Shown here: one piece after another, positions 1 through 15,985 of the stretch
Position numbering within the stretch: the first letter of the stretch is position 1
Layout of the letters: every line of letters starts with the position of its first letter
Virus record (IMG/VR): IMGVR_UViG_643348545_000012
DNA from: a virus
Taxonomy: Duplodnaviria > Heunggongvirae > Uroviricota > Caudoviricetes
Strand: one strand, 5' to 3'
DNA length: 22,074 bases
The notes under the pieces: model-generated
What the model saw: only the letters and a program-made list of their open reading frames with translations
Databases searched by the model: none
What the model was told of the DNA's origin: nothing
Translations under genes and position numbers: made by a program

Positions 1-2109
1 TTACACCATACTGTTAACCTGGCCGGGTAATTCGCTAGCTGGAATACGAAAGGTATACCAGGCATAACGACAGCGTTTCCACAGGCTGGAGAAATGGAGA
101 TGATAAAGGCAATCTGCAATAATTTCGTTATCTGGATATAAAGACTCGGCAAAATGTGTCCAGCGCGCACTGAGTTTCATGTTAAACAGTTTTTCATCTT
201 CTTTGTTACCATACAGGCGCGACAAAGTAATCATTGCTTCGAGCGTACCTTTATTCGCTTCTTCTTGTACCTGTTGGAGGTGCAAATGAGCAAGTGAGAG
301 TTCTTTCACCTCAAAGATATTAAGTAAAAAAAGCCCCCATGCTTTTTCATGTCCAGCTTCATGAGCCAGAAATAAATTGTCAAGGAGATTTTTTTCATAA
401 ATAGCCCGTGTTTCTTTAGAAATTTCTTGTTTATTTAGTGCCTGGTAGCAGATAGCAATGCTAAAATAAATATTTTGTAGATCTTGTTGATGTTCGCTAT
501 AACCATAATTTTTTACCAGTGGATAAGATACCGAGCTATGGAAATTTAGGTCATCTTGAAGTATTTTAAGTGCCCGTCGAAAATACTCCAAAGCTGTAGA
601 TGGTTCATAAGGTAATTTTGTATTGTCTTCCTTATCCAAATATTCAAGAGCAACTAAATTTAATGCGGCAGGAATATTTCTTTGCTTACCAATTGTCGCA
701 AGCGGAATGAAATAATCAGAAAGGTCAAACCAACTCAAATCTTTTATTGCCGACCGCCAATTATGATTGTATTTAATGTCACTAGCTTTTTCCAGCCAAG
801 CATCGCCCTGCCCTTCATCTTTTTCAAAACCCAAAATACCCTCTCGCTGGAAAAACCCCCTATAAATAACAGGTGTAGCATAAGTTGTATTCTGTGAATT
901 TTGGCAGATAAAATTATATATCCAGAATGAATCTGGATAATAACTTAATGCAAATTTTATCGCGTACGCAGTGTAATAATTATTGAGCTTCATGTCTTCC
1001 ATCACCGCTCGCTGTATACAGCACCACAACTTATCGTGATCGTTCTGCTTGTTATAGCAGGCAAGTAACCACTCTAGGGCATTATGGCGACATTCCTGAA
1101 ATTGTGCGTACTGAGCAATATTCTCTGCTAAGTCGATTGCATATTGTTGCTCCTCGGGCGCAATGTCCTCAATGCTGACATCTCGGTAATCATCCCACCA
1201 AAGTAAGAGATCCATATAGTCATGTTCTTCGGTAGATAAGTGCTTACAGGTTACTGAATCCAGCAATTCGGAAATTTCTTTATGCGACCCTCCCCAGCGT
1301 AGCATTCGAAATGGTATATATTCAACAAAAGGATAAAAAGTGTGAGGAAAAATAGTCAGGCAAACAGAAAGCCAATATTTTTGCCCACCATCATCATCAT
1401 ACTCAGGAAGTATATTGGGGCGAGGCAAAACGGGGCATATTGCATGCTCAAACGAAAGTCCGGAATACGCCATCAACGCTTCCACTTCTTGCGGGGAGCG
1501 GCGGTGATAATTTTTCAGTGCGATCATTAATGGTATTCCTGCGACACTATCACCGTTAAGGTGTGCCGCCAGCCAGGCTGGCTGACCAAATACTTTTGAG
1601 TTGGTGCTGGTAAGTAATGCAGCCATCCATTGTCGTGGGTCACAATCAATTGCTTTAAGTGTAGCGATGACCATTTGTTCATTACATGCACCAGCACAAA
1701 GCCACATTGCATGTGTGGTATCATTTGCCCAGCCATAACTGCGATATAACCATGCACGGTGATTCCAGTATTGTGCTTCGGCAAGCCAGGCATGTGTAGA
1801 ATGAGGTCTTGCTTGCTGCCAGGTTTTAATGAGTCTTAAACCTTCTGTTCCGGCATCAACTAGCGTGTTCATATCATAAAAATAGTTGCACATTTGGGTC
1901 CAGGATAAAAAATAGCGCTTTTCAGCCTGACGAGAAGTGAAACTCTCCTGTAATACCTGGTTATAAATTTCATCTAGTTCCTGATAACGTTTTTCTTGTA
2001 ACATATAAGGAATATTTGCGATTTGCCATTTTCTCTCAAGAGTATTAAGTGGCATTTTTTGGTCACACATCTTTTGCATTGCACTGAGTAAACGAGCATC
2101 CTGTTCCAT
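1..2109 (-). CDS. Hypothetical large protein, third gene of AT-rich operon; contains an HEAGH (HEXXH-type) motif near the C-terminus. The ORF extends to 2148 (715 aa) but the ATG at 2109 has an AAGGA Shine-Dalgarno about 7 nt upstream and avoids a 29-nt overlap with the upstream gene.
   Basis: Long uninterrupted ORF in the track (1..2148), stop at positions 1-3; RBS read upstream of the internal Met; low GC compared with neighbouring yegQ. Function not recognised. Confidence 0.6.
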   Translation of the reverse strand: MEQDARLLSAMQKMCDQKMPLNTLERKWQIANIPYMLQEKRYQELDEIYNQVLQESFTSRQAEKRYFLSWTQMCNYFYDMNTLVDAGTEGLRLIKTWQQARPHSTHAWLAEAQYWNHRAWLYRSYGWANDTTHAMWLCAGACNEQMVIATLKAIDCDPRQWMAALLTSTNSKVFGQPAWLAAHLNGDSVAGIPLMIALKNYHRRSPQEVEALMAYSGLSFEHAICPVLPRPNILPEYDDDGGQKYWLSVCLTIFPHTFYPFVEYIPFRMLRWGGSHKEISELLDSVTCKHLSTEEHDYMDLLLWWDDYRDVSIEDIAPEEQQYAIDLAENIAQYAQFQECRHNALEWLLACYNKQNDHDKLWCCIQRAVMEDMKLNNYYTAYAIKFALSYYPDSFWIYNFICQNSQNTTYATPVIYRGFFQREGILGFEKDEGQGDAWLEKASDIKYNHNWRSAIKDLSWFDLSDYFIPLATIGKQRNIPAALNLVALEYLDKEDNTKLPYEPSTALEYFRRALKILQDDLNFHSSVSYPLVKNYGYSEHQQDLQNIYFSIAICYQALNKQEISKETRAIYEKNLLDNLFLAHEAGHEKAWGLFLLNIFEVKELSLAHLHLQQVQEEANKGTLEAMITLSRLYGNKEDEKLFNMKLSARWTHFAESLYPDNEIIADCLYHLHFSSLWKRCRYAWYTFRIPASELPGQVNSMV

Positions 2110-2119
2110 AGATATCCTT

Positions 2120-2836
2120 TTAATTAGGTTCAAAAATTTTAAATTCATTCCACGGCAATTTTTTCCAGTTACTGGATGGATCTTTCAACCATGCAGTGAC
2201 TTCCTTTAAATCACGGTTCGCAGTGGCGACGGGGGTATCGTATATCATTAACCATTTTTGTCGGGCGCGAACATAAGCACTGGCATAATCTTCCCATGAA
2301 GCGAAACAATCTTGTGCTCTTTGAGCATTCAGTAATAACACTATCCAGGCCTGGTTTTCATCGCACCAGCCTAAACCGGCGATGCAACGAGTTAAAAAAG
2401 CAGTGCGCATACAGTCAAACGCCAGCCCATCCAGAACCTGGCCTTGTGCTGCCAGTTGTTCGTAAAAATCATGTGGAGAATTACCAAGCCCTGTAGCCCA
2501 GCGCTGTAATATAACGCCAATTTGTTGACGGAAATCTTCGTTGCTTTGGTAAGTTTCTGTTCCTAGCTCTTGTTTAACCTGTAGTGCAAGTTGTTGACGC
2601 TTATCATCAGTCAACTTTAAATCTAACGTGAAGCCATTTACTGACAGTCCATTACGACGAGCAACTATATCACCAATTGCTAATGCCCACTTACGTCTCT
2701 TTGTTGCTCGTCTTTTGTCCTTGATTAGATCCTTTTCTTTTTCTTTAGCAATAAAAGCATCGATTTGTGGTTTGTTTTTTTTGTATCTATAGATAAAAAT
2801 AAATATTGCGACCAGGAGAACAATGATAAGACTCAT
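2120..2836 (-). CDS. DUF1266-like (YbeU/YbeR-like) protein with N-terminal transmembrane helix
   Basis: 238 aa ORF; N-terminus MSLIIVLLVAIFIFIY is hydrophobic; C-terminal half with W/D-rich pattern ending ...WKKLPWNEF resembles my recollection of the DUF1266 family; start codon overlaps the stop of the upstream gene by 1 nt (TAATG), suggesting translational coupling. Confidence 0.6.
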   Translation of the reverse strand: MSLIIVLLVAIFIFIYRYKKNKPQIDAFIAKEKEKDLIKDKRRATKRRKWALAIGDIVARRNGLSVNGFTLDLKLTDDKRQQLALQVKQELGTETYQSNEDFRQQIGVILQRWATGLGNSPHDFYEQLAAQGQVLDGLAFDCMRTAFLTRCIAGLGWCDENQAWIVLLLNAQRAQDCFASWEDYASAYVRARQKWLMIYDTPVATANRDLKEVTAWLKDPSSNWKKLPWNEFKIFEPN

Positions 2837-4050
2837 TATTTTTCAACCTCTGACAGGGGTAAGTAATGAGATGTCTGTAATGTCAAACTCTCTATCTCAA
2901 AGGAAATGTTGCTGATATTTTGACCTGCAAATTGCGGATGCCACTCAGCGCCAGGGAATAACATTTCCGCAGAAGTAGCAACTATAGGGTCAATAGCATT
3001 AAGATAATGTAACTTATCAGGTGCGCTGTGTAACAGTAACCACTGCAACTCCACTGAAGGATTTGTAAAATGTTCTAATAAATGAAAGTTATTATGTAGT
3101 ACGCTTAGTAAAAAACTGGTTTCGTATACTTCCGTTACATATTTCCACCCCTGATATTCAGGTGTATTTTCATAAACAATACCCATACCTTCACAATCAC
3201 TATGTCGAACTGCTTGTGGTGATAATAGTTGCAAAAGAGACAAAACATCGTCCGCATATTTTTTAACTGGATGACGATTTTGCTTACCTTTTATTTGATC
3301 AATTTCAAGTGAATCACCAACAACATTGAGAGCAATAGTAACATGAGGAATATTATTATTATCACGCAAACTGAATAACCGTAATTTATGTTGCTCAATT
3401 TGATTTGCATAATACTCACCATAACCACCGGTAAGATTTTTTCGATCATCAAACTGGCCTACGCAATGTTGCATATGCCATGATTCATAAGCCATTTCAC
3501 GACGAAGGTTCGAATGACTGGCATCAAACTCAACAATTTTTCCGTCTGGCACATCAAGTATTGACTTTACAGTATTTTGTTCACTCGGCTGCCACCCTTT
3601 CTCGCGTCGTTGAAGCATCTTTTCATGCTCTTCTTCACGCATTCTGAACGCAACGTAGCAGGTTATGCGCTGTAGTTTTGATTCCAGACGGGTACCACAT
3701 TTCCTGGAAAGAAATTCCACCAACTCCCGTTCTTTGGTTAATATTTGTTGATGATCGGTTTCGATATAATAAAGTGTCGCAGTTGATACTGAGGCAGTAT
3801 TAAACTTCGATACCAGCCATTCCGGGATTACATCATCATTTTTATTAAACAGTGAATATTCTGCAAGCGAGTTAATTTGTTGCACCATTGGAAAGTCACT
3901 AATTAGCCATCGATAAAAATGGTTGAGTAACCATTTTTGGATGGTCTCATTATCCTGGCGAAACAGACTTCTTTGCAAAATTGCTGTTTTTACTTCCGGG
4001 GCATTAATTACATCCCTTGCATTATAATTCTGGTGAATATTTCCAGTCAT
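2836..4050 (-). CDS. Hypothetical protein (404 aa), first gene of AT-rich three-gene operon
   Basis: Long ORF in track, AT-rich codon usage, divergent from yegQ; no family recognised by eye. Confidence 0.6.
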   Translation of the reverse strand: MTGNIHQNYNARDVINAPEVKTAILQRSLFRQDNETIQKWLLNHFYRWLISDFPMVQQINSLAEYSLFNKNDDVIPEWLVSKFNTASVSTATLYYIETDHQQILTKERELVEFLSRKCGTRLESKLQRITCYVAFRMREEEHEKMLQRREKGWQPSEQNTVKSILDVPDGKIVEFDASHSNLRREMAYESWHMQHCVGQFDDRKNLTGGYGEYYANQIEQHKLRLFSLRDNNNIPHVTIALNVVGDSLEIDQIKGKQNRHPVKKYADDVLSLLQLLSPQAVRHSDCEGMGIVYENTPEYQGWKYVTEVYETSFLLSVLHNNFHLLEHFTNPSVELQWLLLHSAPDKLHYLNAIDPIVATSAEMLFPGAEWHPQFAGQNISNISFEIESLTLQTSHYLPLSEVEK

Positions 4051-4537
4051 AACATCCGCCCGTGTTTATTATATCACTCAAAGCAATAATTGTTGACTAT
4101 AGATTTTTTATCTAAATCAGCATGGTTGCAGGTACATACTCAAGTAAGCCACTCAAGAAAATAACGTAAACTCAATAGTGGCAGCGTCACAAACTTTGGA
4201 AATTATGTCTTATATTTGCAGTTTATTTTAGTGAATAATTGAGATAAATGACATTATTTTACATCCTCAATAATTCAGGCTGTAAGAGGACGGCAAATAC
4301 ATTCATAATTATCAGGGGATGAACATTCAGGAAAGTAGTCAGTATCGTCAACTTTTTCTTTTATCACTACATGAAGATTTCGTGTAGATACTCCCATCTC
4401 TGCCACTTCTCCCCTCACATTTACACTGGAGCTAAACCCGCCGATTGCGCTACAATGCCCGCCCTTAAAGTGGGGGCACTCCCCTAACCGCTTCATCAGG
4501 TGAAGCGGCTCTGACCTGTCATCAGAACGAGAGAATT

Positions 4538-5899
4538 ATGTTTAAACCGGAACTCCTTTCCCCGGCGGGAACGCTGAAAAATATGCGTTACGCTTTCGCT
4601 TATGGCGCAGATGCTGTTTATGCGGGCCAGCCGCGTTACTCCCTGCGTGTACGCAACAACGAATTCAACCACGAAAATCTTCAGCTCGGCATCAATGAAG
4701 CCCACGCGCTGGGGAAAAAGTTTTATGTCGTGGTCAACATTGCACCGCACAACGCCAAGCTGAAAACCTTTATCCGTGACCTGAAACCGGTGGTGGAAAT
4801 GGGGCCGGATGCGCTGATTATGTCCGATCCAGGGCTGATTATGCTGGTGCGTGAGCACTTCCCGGAAATGCCAATCCACCTCTCGGTACAGGCTAACGCC
4901 GTAAACTGGGCGACGGTGAAATTCTGGCAGCAAATGGGTCTGACCCGCGTGATCCTCTCTCGCGAACTGTCACTGGAAGAGATTGAAGAGATCCGCAATC
5001 AGGTGCCGGATATGGAGATCGAAATCTTCGTTCACGGCGCGCTGTGCATGGCCTACTCCGGTCGCTGCCTGCTCTCTGGCTATATCAACAAGCGCGACCC
5101 GAACCAGGGCACCTGCACCAACGCCTGCCGCTGGGAGTATAACGTCCAGGAAGGGAAAGAAGATGACGTCGGCAACATCGTACACAAGTACGAGCCGATT
5201 CCGGTGCAAAATGTTGAGCCGACGCTGGGTATCGGCGCGCCAACCGACAAAGTGTTTATGATCGAAGAAGCCCAGCGTCCGGGCGAGTATATGACCGCGT
5301 TTGAAGATGAGCACGGCACTTACATCATGAACTCGAAAGATCTGCGCGCCATCGCCCATGTTGAACGCCTGACCAAAATGGGCGTGCATTCGCTGAAAAT
5401 CGAAGGCCGTACCAAATCTTTCTACTATTGCGCACGCACCGCGCAGGTTTACCGTAAAGCTATCGATGACGCCGCTGCGGGCAAACCGTTCGATACCAGC
5501 CTGCTGGAAACTCTGGAAGGTCTGGCGCATCGTGGCTATACCGAAGGTTTCCTGCGTCGTCATACCCACGACGATTATCAGAACTACGAATACGGTTATT
5601 CGGTTTCTGACCGTCAGCAGTTTGTTGGTGAGTTTACCGGTGAGCGCAAGGGGGAGCTCGCGGCGGTAGCGGTGAAAAATAAATTCTCCGTTGGCGACAG
5701 CCTTGAGCTGATGACGCCGCAAGGCAACATTAACTTTACCCTTGAGCATATGGAAAACGCCAAAGGTGAAGCGATGCCGGTCGCACCAGGCGATGGTTAT
5801 ACTGTGTGGCTCCCGGTGCCGCAGGATCTTGAGCTAAATTACGCGCTGCTGATGCGTAATTTCTCCGGGGAAACCACGCGTAACCCCCACGGTAAGTGA
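4538..5899 (+). CDS. yegQ: U32-family peptidase-like protein YegQ/TrhP (tRNA hydroxylation-associated)
   Basis: 453 aa ORF beginning MFKPELLSPAGTLKNMRYAFAYGADAVYAGQ with the EIFVHGALCMAYSGRC U32 signature; GAGAG RBS just upstream of the ATG; matches recalled E. coli YegQ in length and sequence. Confidence 0.93.
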   Translation: MFKPELLSPAGTLKNMRYAFAYGADAVYAGQPRYSLRVRNNEFNHENLQLGINEAHALGKKFYVVVNIAPHNAKLKTFIRDLKPVVEMGPDALIMSDPGLIMLVREHFPEMPIHLSVQANAVNWATVKFWQQMGLTRVILSRELSLEEIEEIRNQVPDMEIEIFVHGALCMAYSGRCLLSGYINKRDPNQGTCTNACRWEYNVQEGKEDDVGNIVHKYEPIPVQNVEPTLGIGAPTDKVFMIEEAQRPGEYMTAFEDEHGTYIMNSKDLRAIAHVERLTKMGVHSLKIEGRTKSFYYCARTAQVYRKAIDDAAAGKPFDTSLLETLEGLAHRGYTEGFLRRHTHDDYQNYEYGYSVSDRQQFVGEFTGERKGELAAVAVKNKFSVGDSLELMTPQGNINFTLEHMENAKGEAMPVAPGDGYTVWLPVPQDLELNYALLMRNFSGETTRNPHGK

Positions 5900-5931
5900 T
5901 TAATTTCGATTATTTTTCCCGGATGGAAAAT

Positions 5932-5976
5932 TCTTAGAAACCGATCACATACAGCTGCATTTATTAAGGTTATCAT
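5932..5976 (+). promoter_or_regulatory. Putative CRP-dependent promoter of cyaR (CRP half-site TCACA centred near -41.5; -10 TATCAT at 5971-5976)
   Basis: Sequence ttcttagaaaccgatcacatac resembles the CRP consensus (right half exact); TATCAT is 7 nt before the inferred cyaR 5' end. Known biology: cyaR is CRP-activated. Confidence 0.45.
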
Positions 5977-5983
5977 CCGTTTC

Positions 5984-6070
5984 GCTGAAAAACATAACCC
6001 ATAAAATGCTAGCTGTACCAGGAACCACCTCCTTAGCCTGTGTAATCTCCCTTACACGGGCTTATTTTTT
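5984..6070 (+). ncRNA. cyaR: CyaR (RyeE) Hfq-dependent small RNA, 87 nt, with Rho-independent terminator
   Basis: Sequence gctgaaaaacataacccataaaatgctagctgtaccaggaaccacctccttagcctgtgtaatctcccttacacgggcttatttttt matches the CyaR sequence as I recall it; 3' hairpin (gcctgtgtaa / ttacacgggc) followed by a T-run. Confidence 0.8.
6044..6070. repeat. P2-type attachment core (27 bp, aatctcccttacacgggcttatttttt), left prophage junction; overlaps the cyaR terminator
   Basis: Exact 27-bp direct repeat with 21402-21428; reverse complement equals the P2 att core sequence as I recall it. Confidence 0.75.
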
Positions 6071-6134
6071 ACGCGTAATACAATGAAATAAAAGGATTTA
6101 TTTCTGGTCACGTCCACACATTGACCACATCGAC

Positions 6135-6171: not shown

Positions 6172-6390
6172 TTACATCCACATAATTTGCTGCCCTGACG
6201 GCAACGGGTGCGGCCTTACGGCGTGGACTTCTCCCGGCTTCACGATGTATCTCTGTACCGACTCATAAGTGATGAACGTGGCGCTGCAATTCACGTTCTG
6301 GCACTGGTGATAACGCTCTTTTGTCGTGTCAGTGATATAGCGGCTTGTACGCGCATGTGCGGCATGCTGGCATAAAGGACAATGAAACAT
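6172..6390 (-). CDS. ogr: Ogr-type zinc-finger late-gene transcriptional activator (72 aa)
   Basis: Internal Met of the 99-aa ORF gives MFHCPLCQHAAHARTSRYITDTTKERYHQCQNVNCSATF..., a C-x2-C...C-x4-C zinc finger matching P2 Ogr / E. coli OgrK. Confidence 0.9.
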   Translation of the reverse strand: MFHCPLCQHAAHARTSRYITDTTKERYHQCQNVNCSATFITYESVQRYIVKPGEVHAVRPHPLPSGQQIMWM

Positions 6391-6470
6391 CGCGAGCACC
6401 TCTTCCGGTTTTGTTAATGGTGCCATTTTATTTAATTTATCCTTATAAAACAAACAGATAAAACAAAACA

Positions 6471-7634
6471 TTAATCATCATCTTCTGTTTCGTACTCCAC
6501 ATCAGAAAGCCTGACCTCAAGCTCTAAGGACGTCGTGAAGCCGCTATTATTCAGAAAATGTGTCACCTTAGTGATTGTCCAGTCCTGCTCGTCTATGACG
6601 CGCTTAAAGCCTGACACTCTGACCGGTGTTTCCGTGTAAATATCAGCACGACCAGTGGCAAGGCTGATGGAGAACTCCGCAACGCCCCGTTGCAGTTTAT
6701 CCCACTTCGCCTGAGCGGCGCGCATGGCCTGCGCTTTCGTGGCATATACCGTGGTCAGGGCAAAAACGTTGTCAGCTTCACCGGCCATGTATTCACCTTC
6801 GCGCGCTTCCGGTACTTTTGGCGCTTTCTTCTGCGTGACTGGTTTCGCTTTCGGGTGCTCCAGTGCGCGCAGGTGTTTCTCTTTCTTTTTGCGTTTCAGT
6901 TTTACCTTCTGCTTTTGCGGCTTCGGGTCTTTGGTGTGTAACCACTTTGCCGTTACGCCGGTATAGGCTCCACGGTCAGCAATCGCAAAATGATGGCGGT
7001 CGCCGTCGCTGCGGGTTATGGTGACCTGCGGGATTTTTTTACCGCTGGCCGTCACCCCCTGCCCCGCTTTGAGAAACAACAGTTTTCCCATTTTTACCGA
7101 CACCTCACCGCCGTTGCGTTCTGCAAGACGGGTCAGGAATTTCGCATCAGACTCCTGCGACTGGTCGATGTGCGGGATTTTAATTCCGGCCAGTGACGGC
7201 GCGACACTGGCTTCCAGCCTGTTACGGGAGGCTATCGCCTCAACAATCGCACCGAGCGTGGTGTCATGCCATGACCCTTCACGGCGGGAATTGAGCGTCC
7301 CGCGAAAATCTGCACTCCGGGCGCGGATGGTGACCACATCCGGTGCGCCCCGGTGTTCAACCTCATCAACGGTAAATTTCCCTTTGCATACCAGGGCAAA
7401 ACCTTTCCAGCCGATATACACCTTCAGAACAGCACCACGAACCGGCAGTTCGACCTGCCCGTCGGCATCGTTCAGTTCAATATCAAGCTGGTCAGCCTCA
7501 AAGCCCCGGTTATCCGTCAGGGTCATGCTCATCAGACGGTCGCTGATATTGCCGGTAATATCCCTGCTGTCGAGCATCAGCATGTAATCCGGCGTCAGCG
7601 TACTGCCTGCATCAAATGTCAGCGCATCCAGCAT
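6471..7634 (-). CDS. D: P2-like tail protein D (late control gene D product)
   Basis: 387 aa ORF, same length and gene order as P2 gpD (immediately upstream of ogr). Confidence 0.9.
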   Translation of the reverse strand: MLDALTFDAGSTLTPDYMLMLDSRDITGNISDRLMSMTLTDNRGFEADQLDIELNDADGQVELPVRGAVLKVYIGWKGFALVCKGKFTVDEVEHRGAPDVVTIRARSADFRGTLNSRREGSWHDTTLGAIVEAIASRNRLEASVAPSLAGIKIPHIDQSQESDAKFLTRLAERNGGEVSVKMGKLLFLKAGQGVTASGKKIPQVTITRSDGDRHHFAIADRGAYTGVTAKWLHTKDPKPQKQKVKLKRKKKEKHLRALEHPKAKPVTQKKAPKVPEAREGEYMAGEADNVFALTTVYATKAQAMRAAQAKWDKLQRGVAEFSISLATGRADIYTETPVRVSGFKRVIDEQDWTITKVTHFLNNSGFTTSLELEVRLSDVEYETEDDD

Positions 7635-11582: not shown

Positions 11583-12773
11583 TTAATTGCTGTTAACCGA
11601 GGTGACCAGATTTGCCAGGTATTTATCGGTAATACGCTGGCGCAGGGTCAGGTTTTCGAGAGGAGGCACCGGGGTATAGTCGTAGTCGATATACAGTTTT
11701 CCGGCCTTGAGGGTTTCCGCATCGTTGGATTCTTCGCTGAACCAGCAGGTCGCATCCACGATATAGCCGTTTGTTTTCAGCTCTCGGAATTTGGCATTGA
11801 TGCCGTCAACGATGTCGCGAATCAGCGTTGCGGTGATGGGCTTGTCCACCGCCCACATGTGCGCCTCAGCCATCGTGTCGGCCAGCACCTGCGCGGTGCG
11901 GGTGTAGTTTTCAAAGAGGAACAGCGGGTCATCAGAGCAGGTACGGTTACCCCAGAAGCGGAAACCGTCACGGCGAATCAGCGTTGTGACGCCTGACTCG
12001 TTAAGCAGGTCAGCATCGGTGCCGGACTCCTGCAAATCCCAGAATACGGACGCGCTGATGCCGGTAACACCGTTTACCCCGACGTTGGACAGCGTTTTAT
12101 GCCAGCCCTGCTCCTGGTCGATTTTAGCGCGCAGACCCAGCGCACGGGCGGTGGCATACGCGGTGGCGGTGGTACTGGTGACCGTATCCCATGCGAGGAA
12201 ATCCGGCCAGATGACCATCAGCTCACGCTGGCTGAAATTCTGGCGGTAGGCTTTCACCTCGGAAATGGTCTTACAGCCCCATGCGCTGATATATCCGAAA
12301 GCGCGCAGCTTCTGACAGACGGATGCCAGTGCAACAGCCACCTCTTTGGTATCCAGTCCCGGCACACCGAGAATACGCGGTTTAACACCGGTTACCGACT
12401 CCGCCGCCAGCAGGGCTTTTAGTCCGGTGTACTGACCGTTTTCGTCGGTGGTGCCGATGATATTGGAAACGGTCTGCGCGAGTTTCGTTTCCTCGTCATC
12501 ACCGGTGCCGTCTTCCACGCGCACGACAACGGTGACCGGTTTTGACTGGTCAGCGATGGCCTGCAACGATGCCGCCAGCGTGCCTTTTTTACCGGCCTTT
12601 GCAATTGCGCTTTGCACATTGGTAATCAGCACCGGTTTATTGAGGGGGAAGGTTTCCGCATCCGCATCGCTGGCCGTGCAGACCATGCCGACAATGGCAG
12701 TGGATACGGTGGAAATGACGCGGGTGCCGTCGTTAATCTCCAGCACCTGCACGCCATGATGATAGTCACTCAT
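11583..12773 (-). CDS. FI: Tail sheath protein (P2 gpFI-like)
   Basis: 396 aa ORF beginning MSDYHHGVQVLEINDG, same length and position as P2 gpFI. Confidence 0.92.
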   Translation of the reverse strand: MSDYHHGVQVLEINDGTRVISTVSTAIVGMVCTASDADAETFPLNKPVLITNVQSAIAKAGKKGTLAASLQAIADQSKPVTVVVRVEDGTGDDEETKLAQTVSNIIGTTDENGQYTGLKALLAAESVTGVKPRILGVPGLDTKEVAVALASVCQKLRAFGYISAWGCKTISEVKAYRQNFSQRELMVIWPDFLAWDTVTSTTATAYATARALGLRAKIDQEQGWHKTLSNVGVNGVTGISASVFWDLQESGTDADLLNESGVTTLIRRDGFRFWGNRTCSDDPLFLFENYTRTAQVLADTMAEAHMWAVDKPITATLIRDIVDGINAKFRELKTNGYIVDATCWFSEESNDAETLKAGKLYIDYDYTPVPPLENLTLRQRITDKYLANLVTSVNSN

Positions 12774-12869: not shown

Positions 12870-12898
12870 AAAGAAAAGGCGGGCAATTCGCCCGCCTG
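12870..12898 (-). terminator. Rho-independent terminator (hairpin GGCGGGC-aattc-GCCCGCC followed on the minus strand by TTTTCTTTAT), separating the cargo module from the FI late operon
   Basis: Perfect GC-rich 7-bp stem at 12880-12898 with T-rich tract on the minus strand. Confidence 0.55.
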
Positions 12899-12952
12899 TC
12901 CTGATTTGTACTCACTCATTTTCCGCCTGACAATTTACATAGCCCAAATGCT

Positions 12953-12975
12953 ATCAAATCTGACAGTCTGCTTTG
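12953..12975. repeat. Site A: atcaaatctgacagtctgctttg, copy 1 of a ~22-bp putative recombination site
   Basis: Shares the exact 11-mer ctgacagtctg plus flanks with sites at 15262-15284 (direct, 21/23) and 15384-15405 (inverted). Confidence 0.6.
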
Positions 12976-13103
12976 AGCGAAAAGTGGACATTAGAGTTAC
13001 AAAAGCAAGTTTAAATCATCCAAAATATTACAATGTCCTTATCTATCTGATATCGTTATAATAAAAAGCTCCTGAATATAATCGATAGTAGGTGGTTATT
13101 TCC

Positions 13104-13481
13104 ATGAAATCAATTTTAGAGGTTTTTACTCAAGGAAATACTAAAGAAAAACTGGCTGTTATCGCCGATCTCACAACCATTGCGGGAATATCGATTGCAA
13201 CTATTATTGCTGGTTTGTTAACCCTAGTTGCAAAAACAGATAAACTAGATGTTGGAAATCTGTTTGGAGTTGTCATAATATCTCTGCTCGGATTGGCTGG
13301 TGTTTGCTGTTTTGTGGCCTTATTTATTTGGGTTATAACCCAAATGTCTAAACCATGGGGAACACCTCGGGGGGTTCAGCCCTTAGTTAAGTGTGCTATT
13401 TCCCTTATCTTTATCTGTATGTTTTTGCTGGCTGTCTTTACATTTTATGAGTTTATTTCTTCGATGAGCATACGCTATTGA
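13104..13481 (+). CDS. Small integral membrane protein (about 125 aa, 3 predicted TM helices), cargo gene
   Basis: ORF in track (13092..13481, likely ATG at 13104 with aggtgg RBS); three long hydrophobic stretches; AT-rich. Confidence 0.55.
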   Translation: MKSILEVFTQGNTKEKLAVIADLTTIAGISIATIIAGLLTLVAKTDKLDVGNLFGVVIISLLGLAGVCCFVALFIWVITQMSKPWGTPRGVQPLVKCAISLIFICMFLLAVFTFYEFISSMSIRY

Positions 13482-13503
13482 ATATAAAATCAGCCCCCAT
13501 AAC

Positions 13504-14088
13504 TTAAAAGAGACCTTCTATATCGACTTCAATGCCCAAATAACGGACTGTGCTTTCCAGTTTCTTATGGCCCAACAGAAGTTGGATCACCCGGAGACTC
13601 TTGGTTTTCTTGTAGATTAAGTAAGGTTTTGTTCTTCTCATGGAATGTGTGCTGTACAGCGAATCTTCGAGACCAAGCTTTTCTACCCACCCATGAAAAA
13701 TTCGGTTGTATTGCCGGGTTGATATATGGTGGTTAGTTCCGACCCGAGAGCGGAACAGGAAGCCTTTACTATGCCAGTTGCCGAGCTTTATCAATGCAGT
13801 AACCGCTTCCCTTGTCCCTTTGGTTATCTCAAATTGGACAGGGCTGCCGGTTTTCTGTTGCAACACCGTTGCTCTGCTTGAGACAGAACTGCCATATGCA
13901 GCATCTGATACTTTGAGTTTGACCAAATCACAGCCCCGTAGCTTAGTGTCCAAAGCCATGTTGAACAGAGCTAGATCGCGTGTTTTACCTTCCAACTCAA
14001 GTCTAATCCGGATCCCCCAGATATGAGATATCTGAAGTGGCCTTTTTTGACCGATGGTACGGTCTTTATTCCACGGTGACGTTTTCAT
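13504..14088 (-). CDS. Short tyrosine recombinase (FimB/FimE-sized, about 194 aa)
   Basis: C-terminus HSMRRT...LLGHKKLESTVRYLGIEVD carries the box II H-x-x-R, second His and nucleophile Tyr; earlier TKLRGCDL supplies a candidate box I Arg. The track ORF starts at 14190, but the ATG at 14088 has an AGGAG RBS 8 nt upstream and gives a protein the size of FimB/FimE. Confidence 0.75.
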   Translation of the reverse strand: MKTSPWNKDRTIGQKRPLQISHIWGIRIRLELEGKTRDLALFNMALDTKLRGCDLVKLKVSDAAYGSSVSSRATVLQQKTGSPVQFEITKGTREAVTALIKLGNWHSKGFLFRSRVGTNHHISTRQYNRIFHGWVEKLGLEDSLYSTHSMRRTKPYLIYKKTKSLRVIQLLLGHKKLESTVRYLGIEVDIEGLF

Positions 14089-14194
14089 ATTCAAATCTCC
14101 TGCAATGTGGGAGATTTGAGTATGGTTGTCTCTCAAGAGCGAAAATAAGTCAACTATCACTAGTTGTTGCGCATGTACGTATTCTGTCAATTAA

Positions 14195-15037
14195 TTATTG
14201 ACAATCATCAATTCTGGAATGATCAAAATCATCATATCGAATTATAGTCTGGTTGACTGTATCTATTGTTGGTGTCATTTCTGTTATAATATCCTGATAA
14301 CCTAAAGAGTTAAATACATTTACTAAGGCCTCACACCGAAGGGCCGTAGCAATTACAAAATTATAAATTGCCAGCCGTTTATTTTCTTGTTTAACTGCAA
14401 GAATGAATTCGATAGCAGTATTTTCATCACTTTGGATTGCATTATATAGAGATACTATATTTACCATATCATCAGAGAATGTATGTATTGAATCACAAAG
14501 GGGAACGTAATGGGCATGATAGTGTGTTTCCCAGCCAATTAATTCAAAAAGTTTTCTGGTTCCTGGATATTCAGGTGTATTTGGCCACAATCTATTAAAT
14601 AGATCAGTTAGTTCTTTTCCCATGCGAATCCTTTCATTTGCTGCTGGATTAGTCATTCCTTTGGATTTTAAACACTCCAGCCACCGTTTTCCATTACTAT
14701 GAACTAATTTCTTACTAGCCTTGAGTAATGCTTGTGCATTTTCGCCATCATCTATTGCTATATAAAATTGATTGGCAGCCTGTTCTATTATAACCCTAGC
14801 TAATACTTCCGATGCTGAAAAGGCTCCTATATTCAAAGAAGAGATAGCCTGATTACTAAGTTCATTCAGTACATTAAAGTACTGTAAGACCATCAATTTT
14901 TGTTCCACACCCTTTAGGTTGTCTATTTTATTTTTATGCTCCTCAAATTTTGCATGGATATATTTATTTATCGCGGCTATTTTTTTTACATCTTCGTCAA
15001 GATCAAACGGGCAACGTCCAAACAATTCTTTTTTCAT
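14195..15037 (-). CDS. Hypothetical cytoplasmic protein (280 aa), cargo gene upstream of the recombinase
   Basis: ORF with AGGAG RBS 7 nt upstream of ATG; AT-rich; no recognisable motif (no RT YxDD, no clear nuclease or HEPN motif). Confidence 0.6.
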   Translation of the reverse strand: MKKELFGRCPFDLDEDVKKIAAINKYIHAKFEEHKNKIDNLKGVEQKLMVLQYFNVLNELSNQAISSLNIGAFSASEVLARVIIEQAANQFYIAIDDGENAQALLKASKKLVHSNGKRWLECLKSKGMTNPAANERIRMGKELTDLFNRLWPNTPEYPGTRKLFELIGWETHYHAHYVPLCDSIHTFSDDMVNIVSLYNAIQSDENTAIEFILAVKQENKRLAIYNFVIATALRCEALVNVFNSLGYQDIITEMTPTIDTVNQTIIRYDDFDHSRIDDCQ

Positions 15038-15075
15038 ATATTTCTCCTGTTGTACAAGCTTCCATAAGTTGGCAG

Positions 15076-15110
15076 ATTATACACTGAAGATTACCTATAA
15101 ATAGCTGTGC
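15076..15110 (-). promoter_or_regulatory. Candidate sigma70 promoter for the 280-aa cargo gene (perfect TATAAT on the minus strand at 15081-15076; weak -35)
   Basis: Reverse complement of attata at 15076-15081, about 38 nt upstream of the ATG at 15037; -35 element poor, so speculative. Confidence 0.3.
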
Positions 15111-15261
15111 GGGATAGCAGATCAGTGCAAGAAGTACAACCAAGTGAATGTGCGTATTCAGATACCTGGCCTAACGTTCGCGATAGCCGTCCCCTGCACG
15201 AAGCCATATATTAGATGTATTAGCTCAGACCTTATCTGACAGGTTGAGTAGGTAGAATCTA

Positions 15262-15284
15262 ATCAAAGCTGACAGTCTGGTTTG
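15262..15284. repeat. Site B: atcaaagctgacagtctggtttg, direct copy of site A
   Basis: 21 of 23 positions identical to site A; read directly. Confidence 0.6.
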
Positions 15285-15383
15285 GACTGTGAGTTCAACC
15301 GATGGATGCAACACACAGCGATCTACGGACATTACTAGCATAGCTGTGTATTAATCATCGGGAAGCAGGTCAGTCCGCTCCTA

Positions 15384-15405
15384 GCACAGAGCAGACTGTC
15401 AGATT
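15384..15405. repeat. Site C: inverted copy of the site (reverse complement aatctgacagtctgctctgtgc); also part of a 10-bp-stem hairpin tagcacagag...ctctgtgcta (15382-15423)
   Basis: Reverse complement matches site A at 20 of 22 positions; lies 47 bp downstream of the G stop codon. Confidence 0.6.
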
Positions 15406-15457
15406 AGGCTTTACTCTGTGCTATAGATACGTTAGCTCACTCCAGAGATCATACAAC

Positions 15458-15985
15458 TTATTGCGGCATTTCCGGCCATTCAGGATTTGCAGGATCCACA
15501 CGGCTGACCAGAACACTGTAGCGTTCCCATGCTTCCAGTCGGCTACGCTCCTCATCTGTTGCCATATTCAGTCTGACAGAGCGTTCCAGTGGCTGAATGA
15601 TAGTTTCAGCTTCGGAAAGCAAAGCTGACTTCTGTAATTCCGCCAGTTGCAGCTGTTCGTCTGCCGTATAAATCCGCTTAATCACGGCACCATCCTTAAA
15701 CATCCATTTACCTGAGTCATCAGCACGTCGGTTGGCGGTAATATCAGGAACCTCGACAACGCTAAAACCTTCAGGGTTGAGCGTTGAAGCATCTCTGGTG
15801 ATGCCGACAATTATATTATTCTCATCGTAAACAATCTTTATCGTGTCTTCCTGAAAATTACTTACTTCCTCATACCAGTTTTTTCCCTCTTCGGACCATA
15901 ACCAGATAACATCAAAATTTTTTGTCAGTTGATATTGGGCAACAGTTTTTGGATTACCCGCAGTAATATTTTTTAAATGCTGCAT
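15458..15985 (-). CDS. G: Tail fiber assembly chaperone (P2 gpG-like)
   Basis: 175 aa ORF immediately downstream of the tail fiber gene; same length as P2 gpG; Tfa-like sequence. Confidence 0.88.

Follow-up and report, generated by a model that had tools for sequence, protein, structure and literature searches.

A candidate site-specific cassette-exchange system at the variable slot of a P2-like prophage and on other replicons

Introduction

The Z/fun variable locus of P2, situated between genes G and FI, is a hotspot for defence genes (Rousset et al. 2022, PMC9122126; PMC13586616). According to a 2026 survey of P2/P4 hotspots, the mechanism by which cargo is exchanged with other mobile elements is unknown, and almost no transposons are present at the P2 slot (PMC13586616). 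The locus discussed here belongs to a 22,074-nt stretch of DNA from a tailed-phage record (Caudoviricetes; IMG/VR record IMGVR_UViG_643348545_000012), hereafter the window, whose coordinates are used throughout; comparison loci are given L-numbers. In the window, three AT-rich cargo genes, among them genes for a small tyrosine recombinase and a DUF5677 protein, lie between two short, inverted, palindromic sites named A and C. The arrangement is read here, with a probability of roughly 0.6, as the product of a site-specific cassette-exchange system, with the window preserving a fossilised insertion and not the fim-like switch that was proposed in a first-pass annotation of the same sequence.

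Among described systems, integrons also combine a tyrosine recombinase with tandem arrays of discrete cassettes, most of them of one gene, bounded by imperfect palindromes, and there too the same cassettes recur on many replicons. The junctions between neighbouring cassettes, composed of a C site, a linker and an A site, also occupy the position of attC. The present recombinase, however, has only 200 aa and lacks both an N-terminal domain and the IntI-specific insertion, the boundaries are simple palindromes of 24-39 bp, each cassette bears two different inverted sites, the recombinase gene has cassettes on either side instead of standing at the array's end, and cassettes point either way. Compared with attC (57-141 bp, organized as R''-L''...L'-R' with GTTRRRY), the composite junctions are ~70 nt long and end in AAY...RTT, with no RRRY apparent after GTT. 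An IntI-type integrase was considered and rejected, given scores of 18.3 bits with NF011946 (cut-off 435) and 18.2 bits with TIGR02249 (cut-off 265).

Cre/loxP and FLP/FRT likewise employ two inverted half-sites around an asymmetric spacer, and engineered lox cassette exchange places two spacer variants in inverted orientation around an exchangeable segment, an arrangement that would favour exchange over excision or inversion. In contrast, the system considered here would be a natural one, its enzyme is about half the size of Cre, its inner and outer half-sites differ beyond 7-8 bp, and its two spacers are only putatively incompatible. The pdif modules of Acinetobacter plasmids are dependent on the host XerC/XerD and carry 28-bp dif-like sites. 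They too are discrete accessory modules bounded by inverted short sites in many plasmid contexts, but here the sites enclose the gene of a recombinase of their own, and their sequence does not resemble the 11-6-11 dif site. A Xer-type recombinase was also rejected, as the XerC and XerD models returned 43.3 bits (cut-off 335) and 25.7 bits (cut-off 330), respectively. The fim switch, in which FimB and FimE act on fimS, shares a tyrosine recombinase of ~200 aa and short inverted repeats, and it was the model adopted in the first-pass annotation. The analogy does not extend further: the locus displays no invertible promoter segment or orientation variants, its repeats are universal features of the phage backbone, and the fimB/fimE invertase models NF007371 and NF007370 gave 22.9 and 14.5 bits, far under their cut-offs of 222 and 221.

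The slot of the window is that of the Z/fun hotspot itself, with AT-rich, unrelated cargo between tail-fibre assembly and tail sheath genes. Word searches of PMC9122126 and PMC13586616 turned up neither flanking sites nor a recombinase described within the hotspot, and neither the site sequences nor six protein accessions found a match in the literature searched. An earlier account in older P2 or mcr-10 papers is possible; as a whole, the gene-cassette exchange system looks undescribed.

Paired sites at the P2 slot

The window contains a P2-like prophage in which the tail sheath gene FI (11583-12773, minus strand) and the tail-fibre assembly gene G (15458-15985, minus strand) flank the variable slot, as identified by Pfam matches (Phage_sheath and Caudo_TAP). 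The flanks of the slot are 90-98% identical to those of P2, Wphi, L-413C and others, and variable cargo between G and FI of a P2-like phage identifies it as the P2 Z/fun defence hotspot. The sites and their surroundings are as follows:

12927-12955, plus strand: conserved FI-side backbone flank, including the first CTGACA; at least 90% column conservation in 33 distinct P2-like sequences
12956-12994, plus strand: site A, A-type; outer half-site GTCTGCT at 12966-12972, spacer TTGAGCGAAA, inner half-site AGTGGAC at 12983-12989 followed by ATT
15236-15293, plus strand: site B, a relic; ~33 nt resembling the P2 FI-side flank, then an A-type site without its centre AGCGAAAAGTG, reading TGACAGTC-TGGTTTG-GACTGTGA
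15372-15405, minus strand: site C, C-type; outer half-site GTCTGCT at 15396-15390, spacer CTGTGCTAGG, inner half-site AGCGGAC at 15379-15373
15382-15424, no strand assigned: larger conserved G-side hairpin TAGCACAGAG-N23-CTCTGTGCTA, enclosing the outer half of site C

The individual sites are small palindromes formed by GTCYGCT, a spacer of ~10 nt (N10) and AGCGGAC, followed by RTT, with half-sites of 7-8 bp. The spacers are of two types, TGAGCG on the FI side (A type) and TGTGCC on the G side (C type), distinguished at profile positions 21 and 24 by A and G versus T and C, and these two lox/FRT-like classes are kept apart. On the outer side, the P2 sites are extended by TGACA, and this extension together with the outer half-site makes up the 11-mer CTGACAGTCTG on which the first-pass annotation had focused. 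Its account of the repeats was accurate, in that the 11-mer occurs exactly three times (12960, plus; 15269, plus; 15392, minus), A and B are identical at 21/23 positions and A and C at 20/22, B and C are separated by 99 bp, an additional CTGACA is present at 15236-15241, and the cargo comprises three AT-rich genes including that of a tyrosine recombinase. When up to one mismatch was allowed, four matches were observed against a mean of 0.25 in shuffled sequence, and 0/100 shuffles reached four. The repeats are longer than had been claimed: A and B are similar across 49 nt (12927-12975 versus 15236-15284, 71%), and A and C pair as an inverted repeat of 33 nt (82% complementarity). At 6611-6621, inside gene D, the 11-mer recurs with one mismatch as CTGACACTCTG; a site-like context is absent there, and the match is probably due to chance.

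Comparison with other P2-like phages places A and C in the backbone. In six reference phages (P2, P24B2, R18C, P24C9, vB_EcoM-12474II and L-413C), the cargo differs from that of the window and a recombinase is absent (0/6), and both A-like and C-like sequences are present in all six. Homology with these phages covers FI and site A as far as 12980-12998, breaks off, and returns at 15367-15384, from where it reaches G by way of site C. Homology with P2, L-413C, R18C and others passes through the flank at 12927-12955, and conservation at the level of the backbone ends, in the region of site A, after TTTGAGCG. A wider sample of 80 P2-like loci was fetched from IMG/VR, of which 50 contain both flanks, with cargo of 912-4173 bp in more than 30 size classes. 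Nearly all of these 50 have their cargo bracketed by ATCAAATCTGACAGTCTGCTTTGAGCGARRAGCGGACRTT on the FI side and by CCTAATCTGACAGTCCGCTCTGTGCCARRAGCGGACRTT (reverse complement) on the G side, with unrelated sequence directly beyond. Sites A and C, which score 41.7 and 34.8 bits against the site profile, occur on the FI and G sides, respectively, of the slot in ~47 of the 50, and similarity to unrelated cargo begins directly after GCGGACRTT. Only one of the 50 loci encodes a recombinase, and this is a second copy of the window's module. Sites A and C are thus not private to the recombinase module, as had been supposed, and the 11-mer proves to be conserved in P2 G-FI regions that lack any recombinase, an outcome which the first-pass annotation had itself named as counting against a switch.

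In 31-33 distinct sequences, the columns of the flank, the outer half-site and the spacer are conserved at 0.9 or more; conservation then falls, with ARRAGCGGACRTT conserved at 0.6-0.9 despite the unrelated cargo beyond it. This pattern fits an outer half-site linked to the backbone, a crossover within the spacer and an inner half-site that would be linked to the cassette and yet functionally constrained. No further sites of this kind were found in P2 backbones outside the hotspot: hotspot pairs account for all 100 matches to the profile in 980 kb. A pattern-based search recovered 86 sites versus ~1 in shuffled sequence.

Site B is of another nature. It lacks 11 central nt of an A-type site and scores 5.9 bits against the profile, in contrast to the 41.7 and 34.8 bits of A and C, so that the A-B excision circle that had been envisaged is unsupported. 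In the non-P2 contexts L001 and L010 it travels as part of the DUF5677 cassette; L011 lacks its core. Site B reads as a centrally deleted relic and not as a partner site, and would be an older relic, carried along in the DUF5677 cassette.

Folded as DNA, site C and the composite junction gave hairpin z-scores of -4.0 and -2.8, respectively, and site A gave a weak -0.9. The larger G-side hairpin takes the form GGCACAGAG...CTCTGTGCC in other P2-like phages, a compensatory change relative to the window. Perfect 13-8-13 palindromes are found at a few sites, on the FI side of L019 (TGACAGTCTGCTT-TGAGCGAA-AAGCAGACTGTCA) and on the G side of L080; these carry the P2-type outer extension on the cargo side too, and may be the products of joining two outer halves. 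The possibility that site A represents the P2 late promoter PF or an Ogr-binding site was dropped, since inspection by eye showed no fit to TGT-N12-ACA and A is separated from FI by a terminator. Rfam scans of the window region and of two array loci returned nothing relevant.

Cassettes and arrays on other replicons

The A/C pair, always inverted, bounds single cassettes as well as tandem arrays on plasmids, a Tn3-family transposon, lambdoid prophages and chromosomal islands. The grammar is constant, every cassette reading A(+)...C(-), and successive cassettes form A C A C arrays in L110, L096, L099, L011, L092, L093 and L056; with the sites typed by spacer, the exceptions are point variants only. 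Neighbouring cassettes meet with their sites back to back, such that C, a conserved linker of ~18 nt and A together form a composite palindrome of ~70 nt. Examples are located at L110:2431-2504, L011:4675-4744, L011:7433-7507 and L010:4598-4665, with the linker reading CTTCAGCTCAGTNAGTTT on one strand. Composites are present in 888/5426 complete E. coli genomes, at low copy (a median of one place per genome), and are intergenic and always situated in accessory regions. Dispersed repeats of the REP or ERIC kind were rejected on account of this low copy number and confinement.

Cargo of P2-like hotspots is shared, site to site, with unrelated replicons. The 1987-bp cargo of L065 recurs as a cassette within a Rac-like prophage (L096, strain AMA1167), with 98.9% identity over 1961 bp, and the 1054-bp cargo of L019 as one on plasmid AR_0162 (L097), with 99.6% identity over 1025 bp. 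In each pair, A aligns with A and C with C and the polarity is kept. No cassette was found inverted in any of the cross-context comparisons. The cassette of orf129, which encodes a membrane protein and is truncated in the window, occurs at its full 850 bp as the sole hotspot cargo between A and C in strain TUM18781 (L109), and as the second cassette of a two-cassette hotspot array in SaT040 (L110). Its inner half-site, AAAAGTGGACATTAG, is constant in three settings in which the outer halves differ, and rare variants of the inner half move together with their cassette. Because the inner halves travel with the cassette while the outer halves change, the crossover is placed in the spacer, and the comparative evidence puts it between the outer half plus TGWGCS on one side and the inner half on the other.

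The DUF5677 gene occurs elsewhere with or without the recombinase, in a lambdoid prophage (L001), in the passenger region of a Tn3-family transposon in Buttiauxella (L010), and alone downstream of guaA in another enterobacterium (L011), and adjoins A- and C-type sites in each of the three. The Tn3-family transposon (L010:1-8600, from a Buttiauxella metagenome-assembled genome) encodes a transposase and a serine resolvase, and its passenger array of site-separated cassettes includes the DUF5677-recombinase pair. A further locus, L122, resembled an intact recombinase array in a P2-like phage; its flanks did not match FI and it was left unused.

The recombinase family and its module

14088-13504, minus strand: tyrosine recombinase of 194 aa, PF00589
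14085-14125, plus strand: inverted repeat over the ribosome-binding site and start codon of the recombinase gene, with a 12-bp stem ACTCAAATCTCC-N8-GGAGATTTGAGT; kept in all modules examined

The recombinase matches PF00589 at 64.4 bits (cut-off 27.1; E = 1.5e-17), and the 194-aa reading starts at an ATG that follows a good ribosome-binding site. The catalytic residues R51, K79, H148-x-x-R151, H173 and Y182 are present, nearly all in columns at least 98% identical among 107 homologues. The catalytic Tyr and Arg, on which the first-pass annotation had asked for an alignment, are therefore in place, but the last 11 residues conserved in the family are missing. Family members are proteins of ~200 aa that consist of the catalytic domain only; the recombinase falls under the cut-offs of the XerC/D, IntI and FimB/E family models, and a phmmer search of PDB sequences gave no match to it.

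The family gene, at a nucleotide identity of at least 87%, is found in 801/5426 E. coli genomes, and the family in 406 plasmids. Its proteins are 76-96% identical across Enterobacterales, Proteus/Providencia, Pantoea, Idiomarina, Pseudoalteromonas and Cycloclasticus, with relatives of 42-64% identity on plasmids of alpha- and beta-proteobacteria, and homologues of 59-65% identity retain GCCAGAAGCGGA downstream.

Some 17 contexts were examined (six from E. coli, nine distinct ones from IMG/VR and two marine), and a recombinase module of ~700 bp is conserved in all of them, with different cargo on each side and with pairwise homology between contexts ending within the two sites. Beyond the stop codon of the gene, a short hairpin is followed by the spacer and inner half of a C-type site and then by cargo; on the start-codon side, another hairpin covers the ribosome-binding site, and ATGGTT, an A-type site and further cargo come after it. 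The link drawn in the first-pass annotation between the repeats and the recombinase consequently holds for A and C, which do have the look of recombination sites, as the family gene is bounded by both site types throughout these contexts, and fails for B. The inverted repeat at 14085-14125 may be a translational or autoregulatory element. In marine metagenomes (L100-L107), homologues of 84% identity lie between the arsenic- and copper-resistance clusters of an element resembling an integrative and conjugative element, and in Idiomarina sp. X4 (L108) a homologue is found beside an eptA/PhoQ-like cluster; across L100-L108, the C-type half-site and the hairpin are kept downstream.

Damage and probable history of the window copy

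12995-13521, plus strand: truncated orf129 cassette, with its open reading frame at 13104-13481; cut inside its own terminator hairpin at 13521/13522
13104-13481, plus strand: open reading frame for a membrane protein of 125 aa with 3-4 predicted membrane helices; PHROG match phrog_4155
14128-14154, plus strand: decayed A-type site of the recombinase module, GTCTCTCAAGAGCGAAAATAAGTCAAC; intact modules carry GTCCCTTATGAGCGAGGAGTGGAC at this place
14155-15371, minus strand: DUF5677 cassette, containing the gene at 15037-14195
15037-14195, minus strand: DUF5677 protein of 280 aa, all-helical

From left to right, the slot of the window holds site A (12956-12994), the orf129 cassette, the recombinase gene, the decayed A-type site (14128-14154), the DUF5677 cassette and site C (15372-15405). 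Set against intact copies, the orf129 cassette is ~330 bp short, the recombinase gene has lost its last 11 codons, and the internal C-type site is absent along with its hairpin. Homology of the recombinase with other copies ends at 13522 in every comparison, the C-type site and hairpin that the family carries downstream are deleted at this same position, and the conserved tail DALEISESIEV (GIEVDDALEISESIEV) is replaced by IEGLF, such that the window copy terminates in ...GIEVDIEGLF. The site at 14128-14154 is no longer a palindrome (fold z-score +0.47), and the breakpoint of the DUF5677-only copy in L011 maps to 14138, within the spacer of this site. At the other end, the homology of the cassette with L001 ends at 15373, in site C. 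As the internal C site and the recombinase tail are lost and the internal A site is decayed, the inner module is probably frozen; the outer A and C sites are intact and could still serve a recombinase supplied in trans.

The complete, uninterrupted module is colinear in 35/35 E. coli genomes, at 99.6-99.8% identity, and two further genomes display an unrelated deletion or replacement of 12938-13983. In E. coli IHE3034 (L002), the equivalent of 12938-13983 is affected: the prophage lacks orf129, site A and two-thirds of the recombinase gene from its 3' end, and its FI flank is only 85% identical; as the junction lies at no site, this event is regarded as illegitimate. One copy of the module, in E. 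coli 98208 (L003), bears an insertion of ISEc12 (IS21 family) just upstream of site B, at the equivalent of 15224-15230, and the overlapping alignment pieces suggest a target duplication of 7 bp.

Proposed mechanism and its alternatives

The comparisons show the anatomy of the sites, the cassette grammar, the sharing of cassettes from site to site, the physical tie of the recombinase gene to the sites, and the damage in the window. From them we infer that the recombinase acts on A and C and that the spacers of the two types are incompatible. The enzyme would join sites of the same type (A/A and C/C), and cassettes, or circles made up of a cassette and the recombinase module, would be inserted, excised or swapped between replicons that bear the sites. 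The two spacer types would prevent the inversion or loss of a cassette while permitting the insertion of circles and two-site exchange. The window would represent one such insertion into the P2 slot, in the order A, orf129 cassette, C (since lost), recombinase, A relic, DUF5677 cassette and C, from which an ordinary deletion at 13521/13522 would have removed the internal C site, the end of orf129 and the last 11 recombinase codons. Stated in its broadest form, as a natural system in which two incompatible lox-like sites mark slots, in Gammaproteobacteria, on P2-like phages, lambdoid prophages, plasmids, Tn3-family transposons and chromosomal islands, and in which a mobile 200-aa recombinase moves single-gene cassettes between them, the proposal stands at about even odds on the sequence comparisons made here.

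If true, such a system would supply the missing mechanism for the rapid swapping of cargo at phage defence hotspots. In enterobacteria, P2-like prophages count among the chief carriers of genes for anti-phage defence, and the turnover of their G/FI slot is very fast. The pair of sites would provide a sequence signature for the boundaries of cassettes, and hence for unknown accessory or defence genes, and would point to a route that cargo might take among phages, plasmids and transposons. As a compact natural recombinase with two sites, the system might also find use in genome engineering.

Several observations weigh against exchange by a dedicated recombinase, and some of these favour instead a reading in which A and C are conserved boundary sequences, cassettes are swapped by general or phage homologous recombination over 25-40 bp, and the recombinase is a frequent passenger. 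The sites, at 24-39 bp, are long enough for ordinary homologous, phage Red-type or short-homology recombination, and they are nearly identical between replicons. The P2-type flank is present in 2554/5426 E. coli genomes versus 801 with the recombinase, which is accordingly absent from most genomes that carry such flanks, and the mapping of the crossover relies on few polymorphisms and is of limited resolution. In addition, the outer half-sites beside the recombinase gene are degenerate, mostly at its C-type site, three homologues of 47-64% identity have no recognisable E. coli-type sites, and the comparisons yielded neither a circle junction nor a pair of empty and occupied sites within one lineage. 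Homologous recombination nevertheless leaves unexplained the palindromic anatomy of half-site, spacer and half-site, the strict separation of spacer types and constant polarity, the conservation of the inner half-site beside unrelated cargo, and the fact that the sites themselves are the ends of the module in ~17 contexts, including marine bacteria with diverged DNA. It is accordingly considered unlikely, at perhaps a third of the weight given to site-specific cassette exchange.

A further alternative regards the palindromes as terminators or insulators that shield the late operons from foreign genes and arrive together with morons, with exchange itself being illegitimate. Each site can form a hairpin, most clearly site C and the composite junction (z = -4.0 and -2.8), the transcription units around the sites are convergent or tandem, and the G-side site is placed within a larger conserved hairpin. 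These hairpins, however, have no T run, and a real terminator is present separately at 12877-12897; site A is highly conserved despite forming only a weak hairpin (z = -0.9), and illegitimate exchange would not yield cassettes that are identical from site to site, with constant A/C polarity, on unrelated replicons. The insulator explanation is thus improbable. The least probable by far, and already largely refuted, is the fim-like phase switch or self-excising module, with B-C or A-C inversion, an A-B circle and phase-variable cargo: a small tyrosine recombinase with intact catalytic residues does adjoin inverted and direct repeats, but A and C are universal in P2-like phages without a recombinase, B is a 5.9-bit relic, all 35 complete, uninterrupted modules are colinear and no cassette is seen in both orientations, the A and C spacers differ, a sigma-70 scan found no promoter-like site in the B-C segment, the invertase models score far below cut-off, and the recombinase is truncated.

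Cargo functions and neighbouring features

The functions of the cargo were also considered. The three cargo proteins match no defence-system model in PADLOC, and searches with NCBIfam and PADLOC assigned no function to the cargo. DUF5677 was among nine candidates tested in an Enterococcus screen and is not among the five named as giving defence (PMC12632615).

12877-12897, minus strand: intrinsic terminator reading GGCGGGC-GAAT-TGCCCGCC and then a T run, situated between site A and the FI start; conserved in P2-like flanks

This terminator is part of the phage backbone and lies outside the cassette system; it is strong, and transcription running on from the cargo slot would stop there before reaching the FI operon. 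At the other end of the prophage, ogr is located at 6172-6471 with chromosomal genes to its left, and positions 1-6100 of the window hold chromosomal genes (DUF4034, DUF1266, PcfJ-like and a U32 peptidase at 4538-5899) that abut the ogr end of the prophage.

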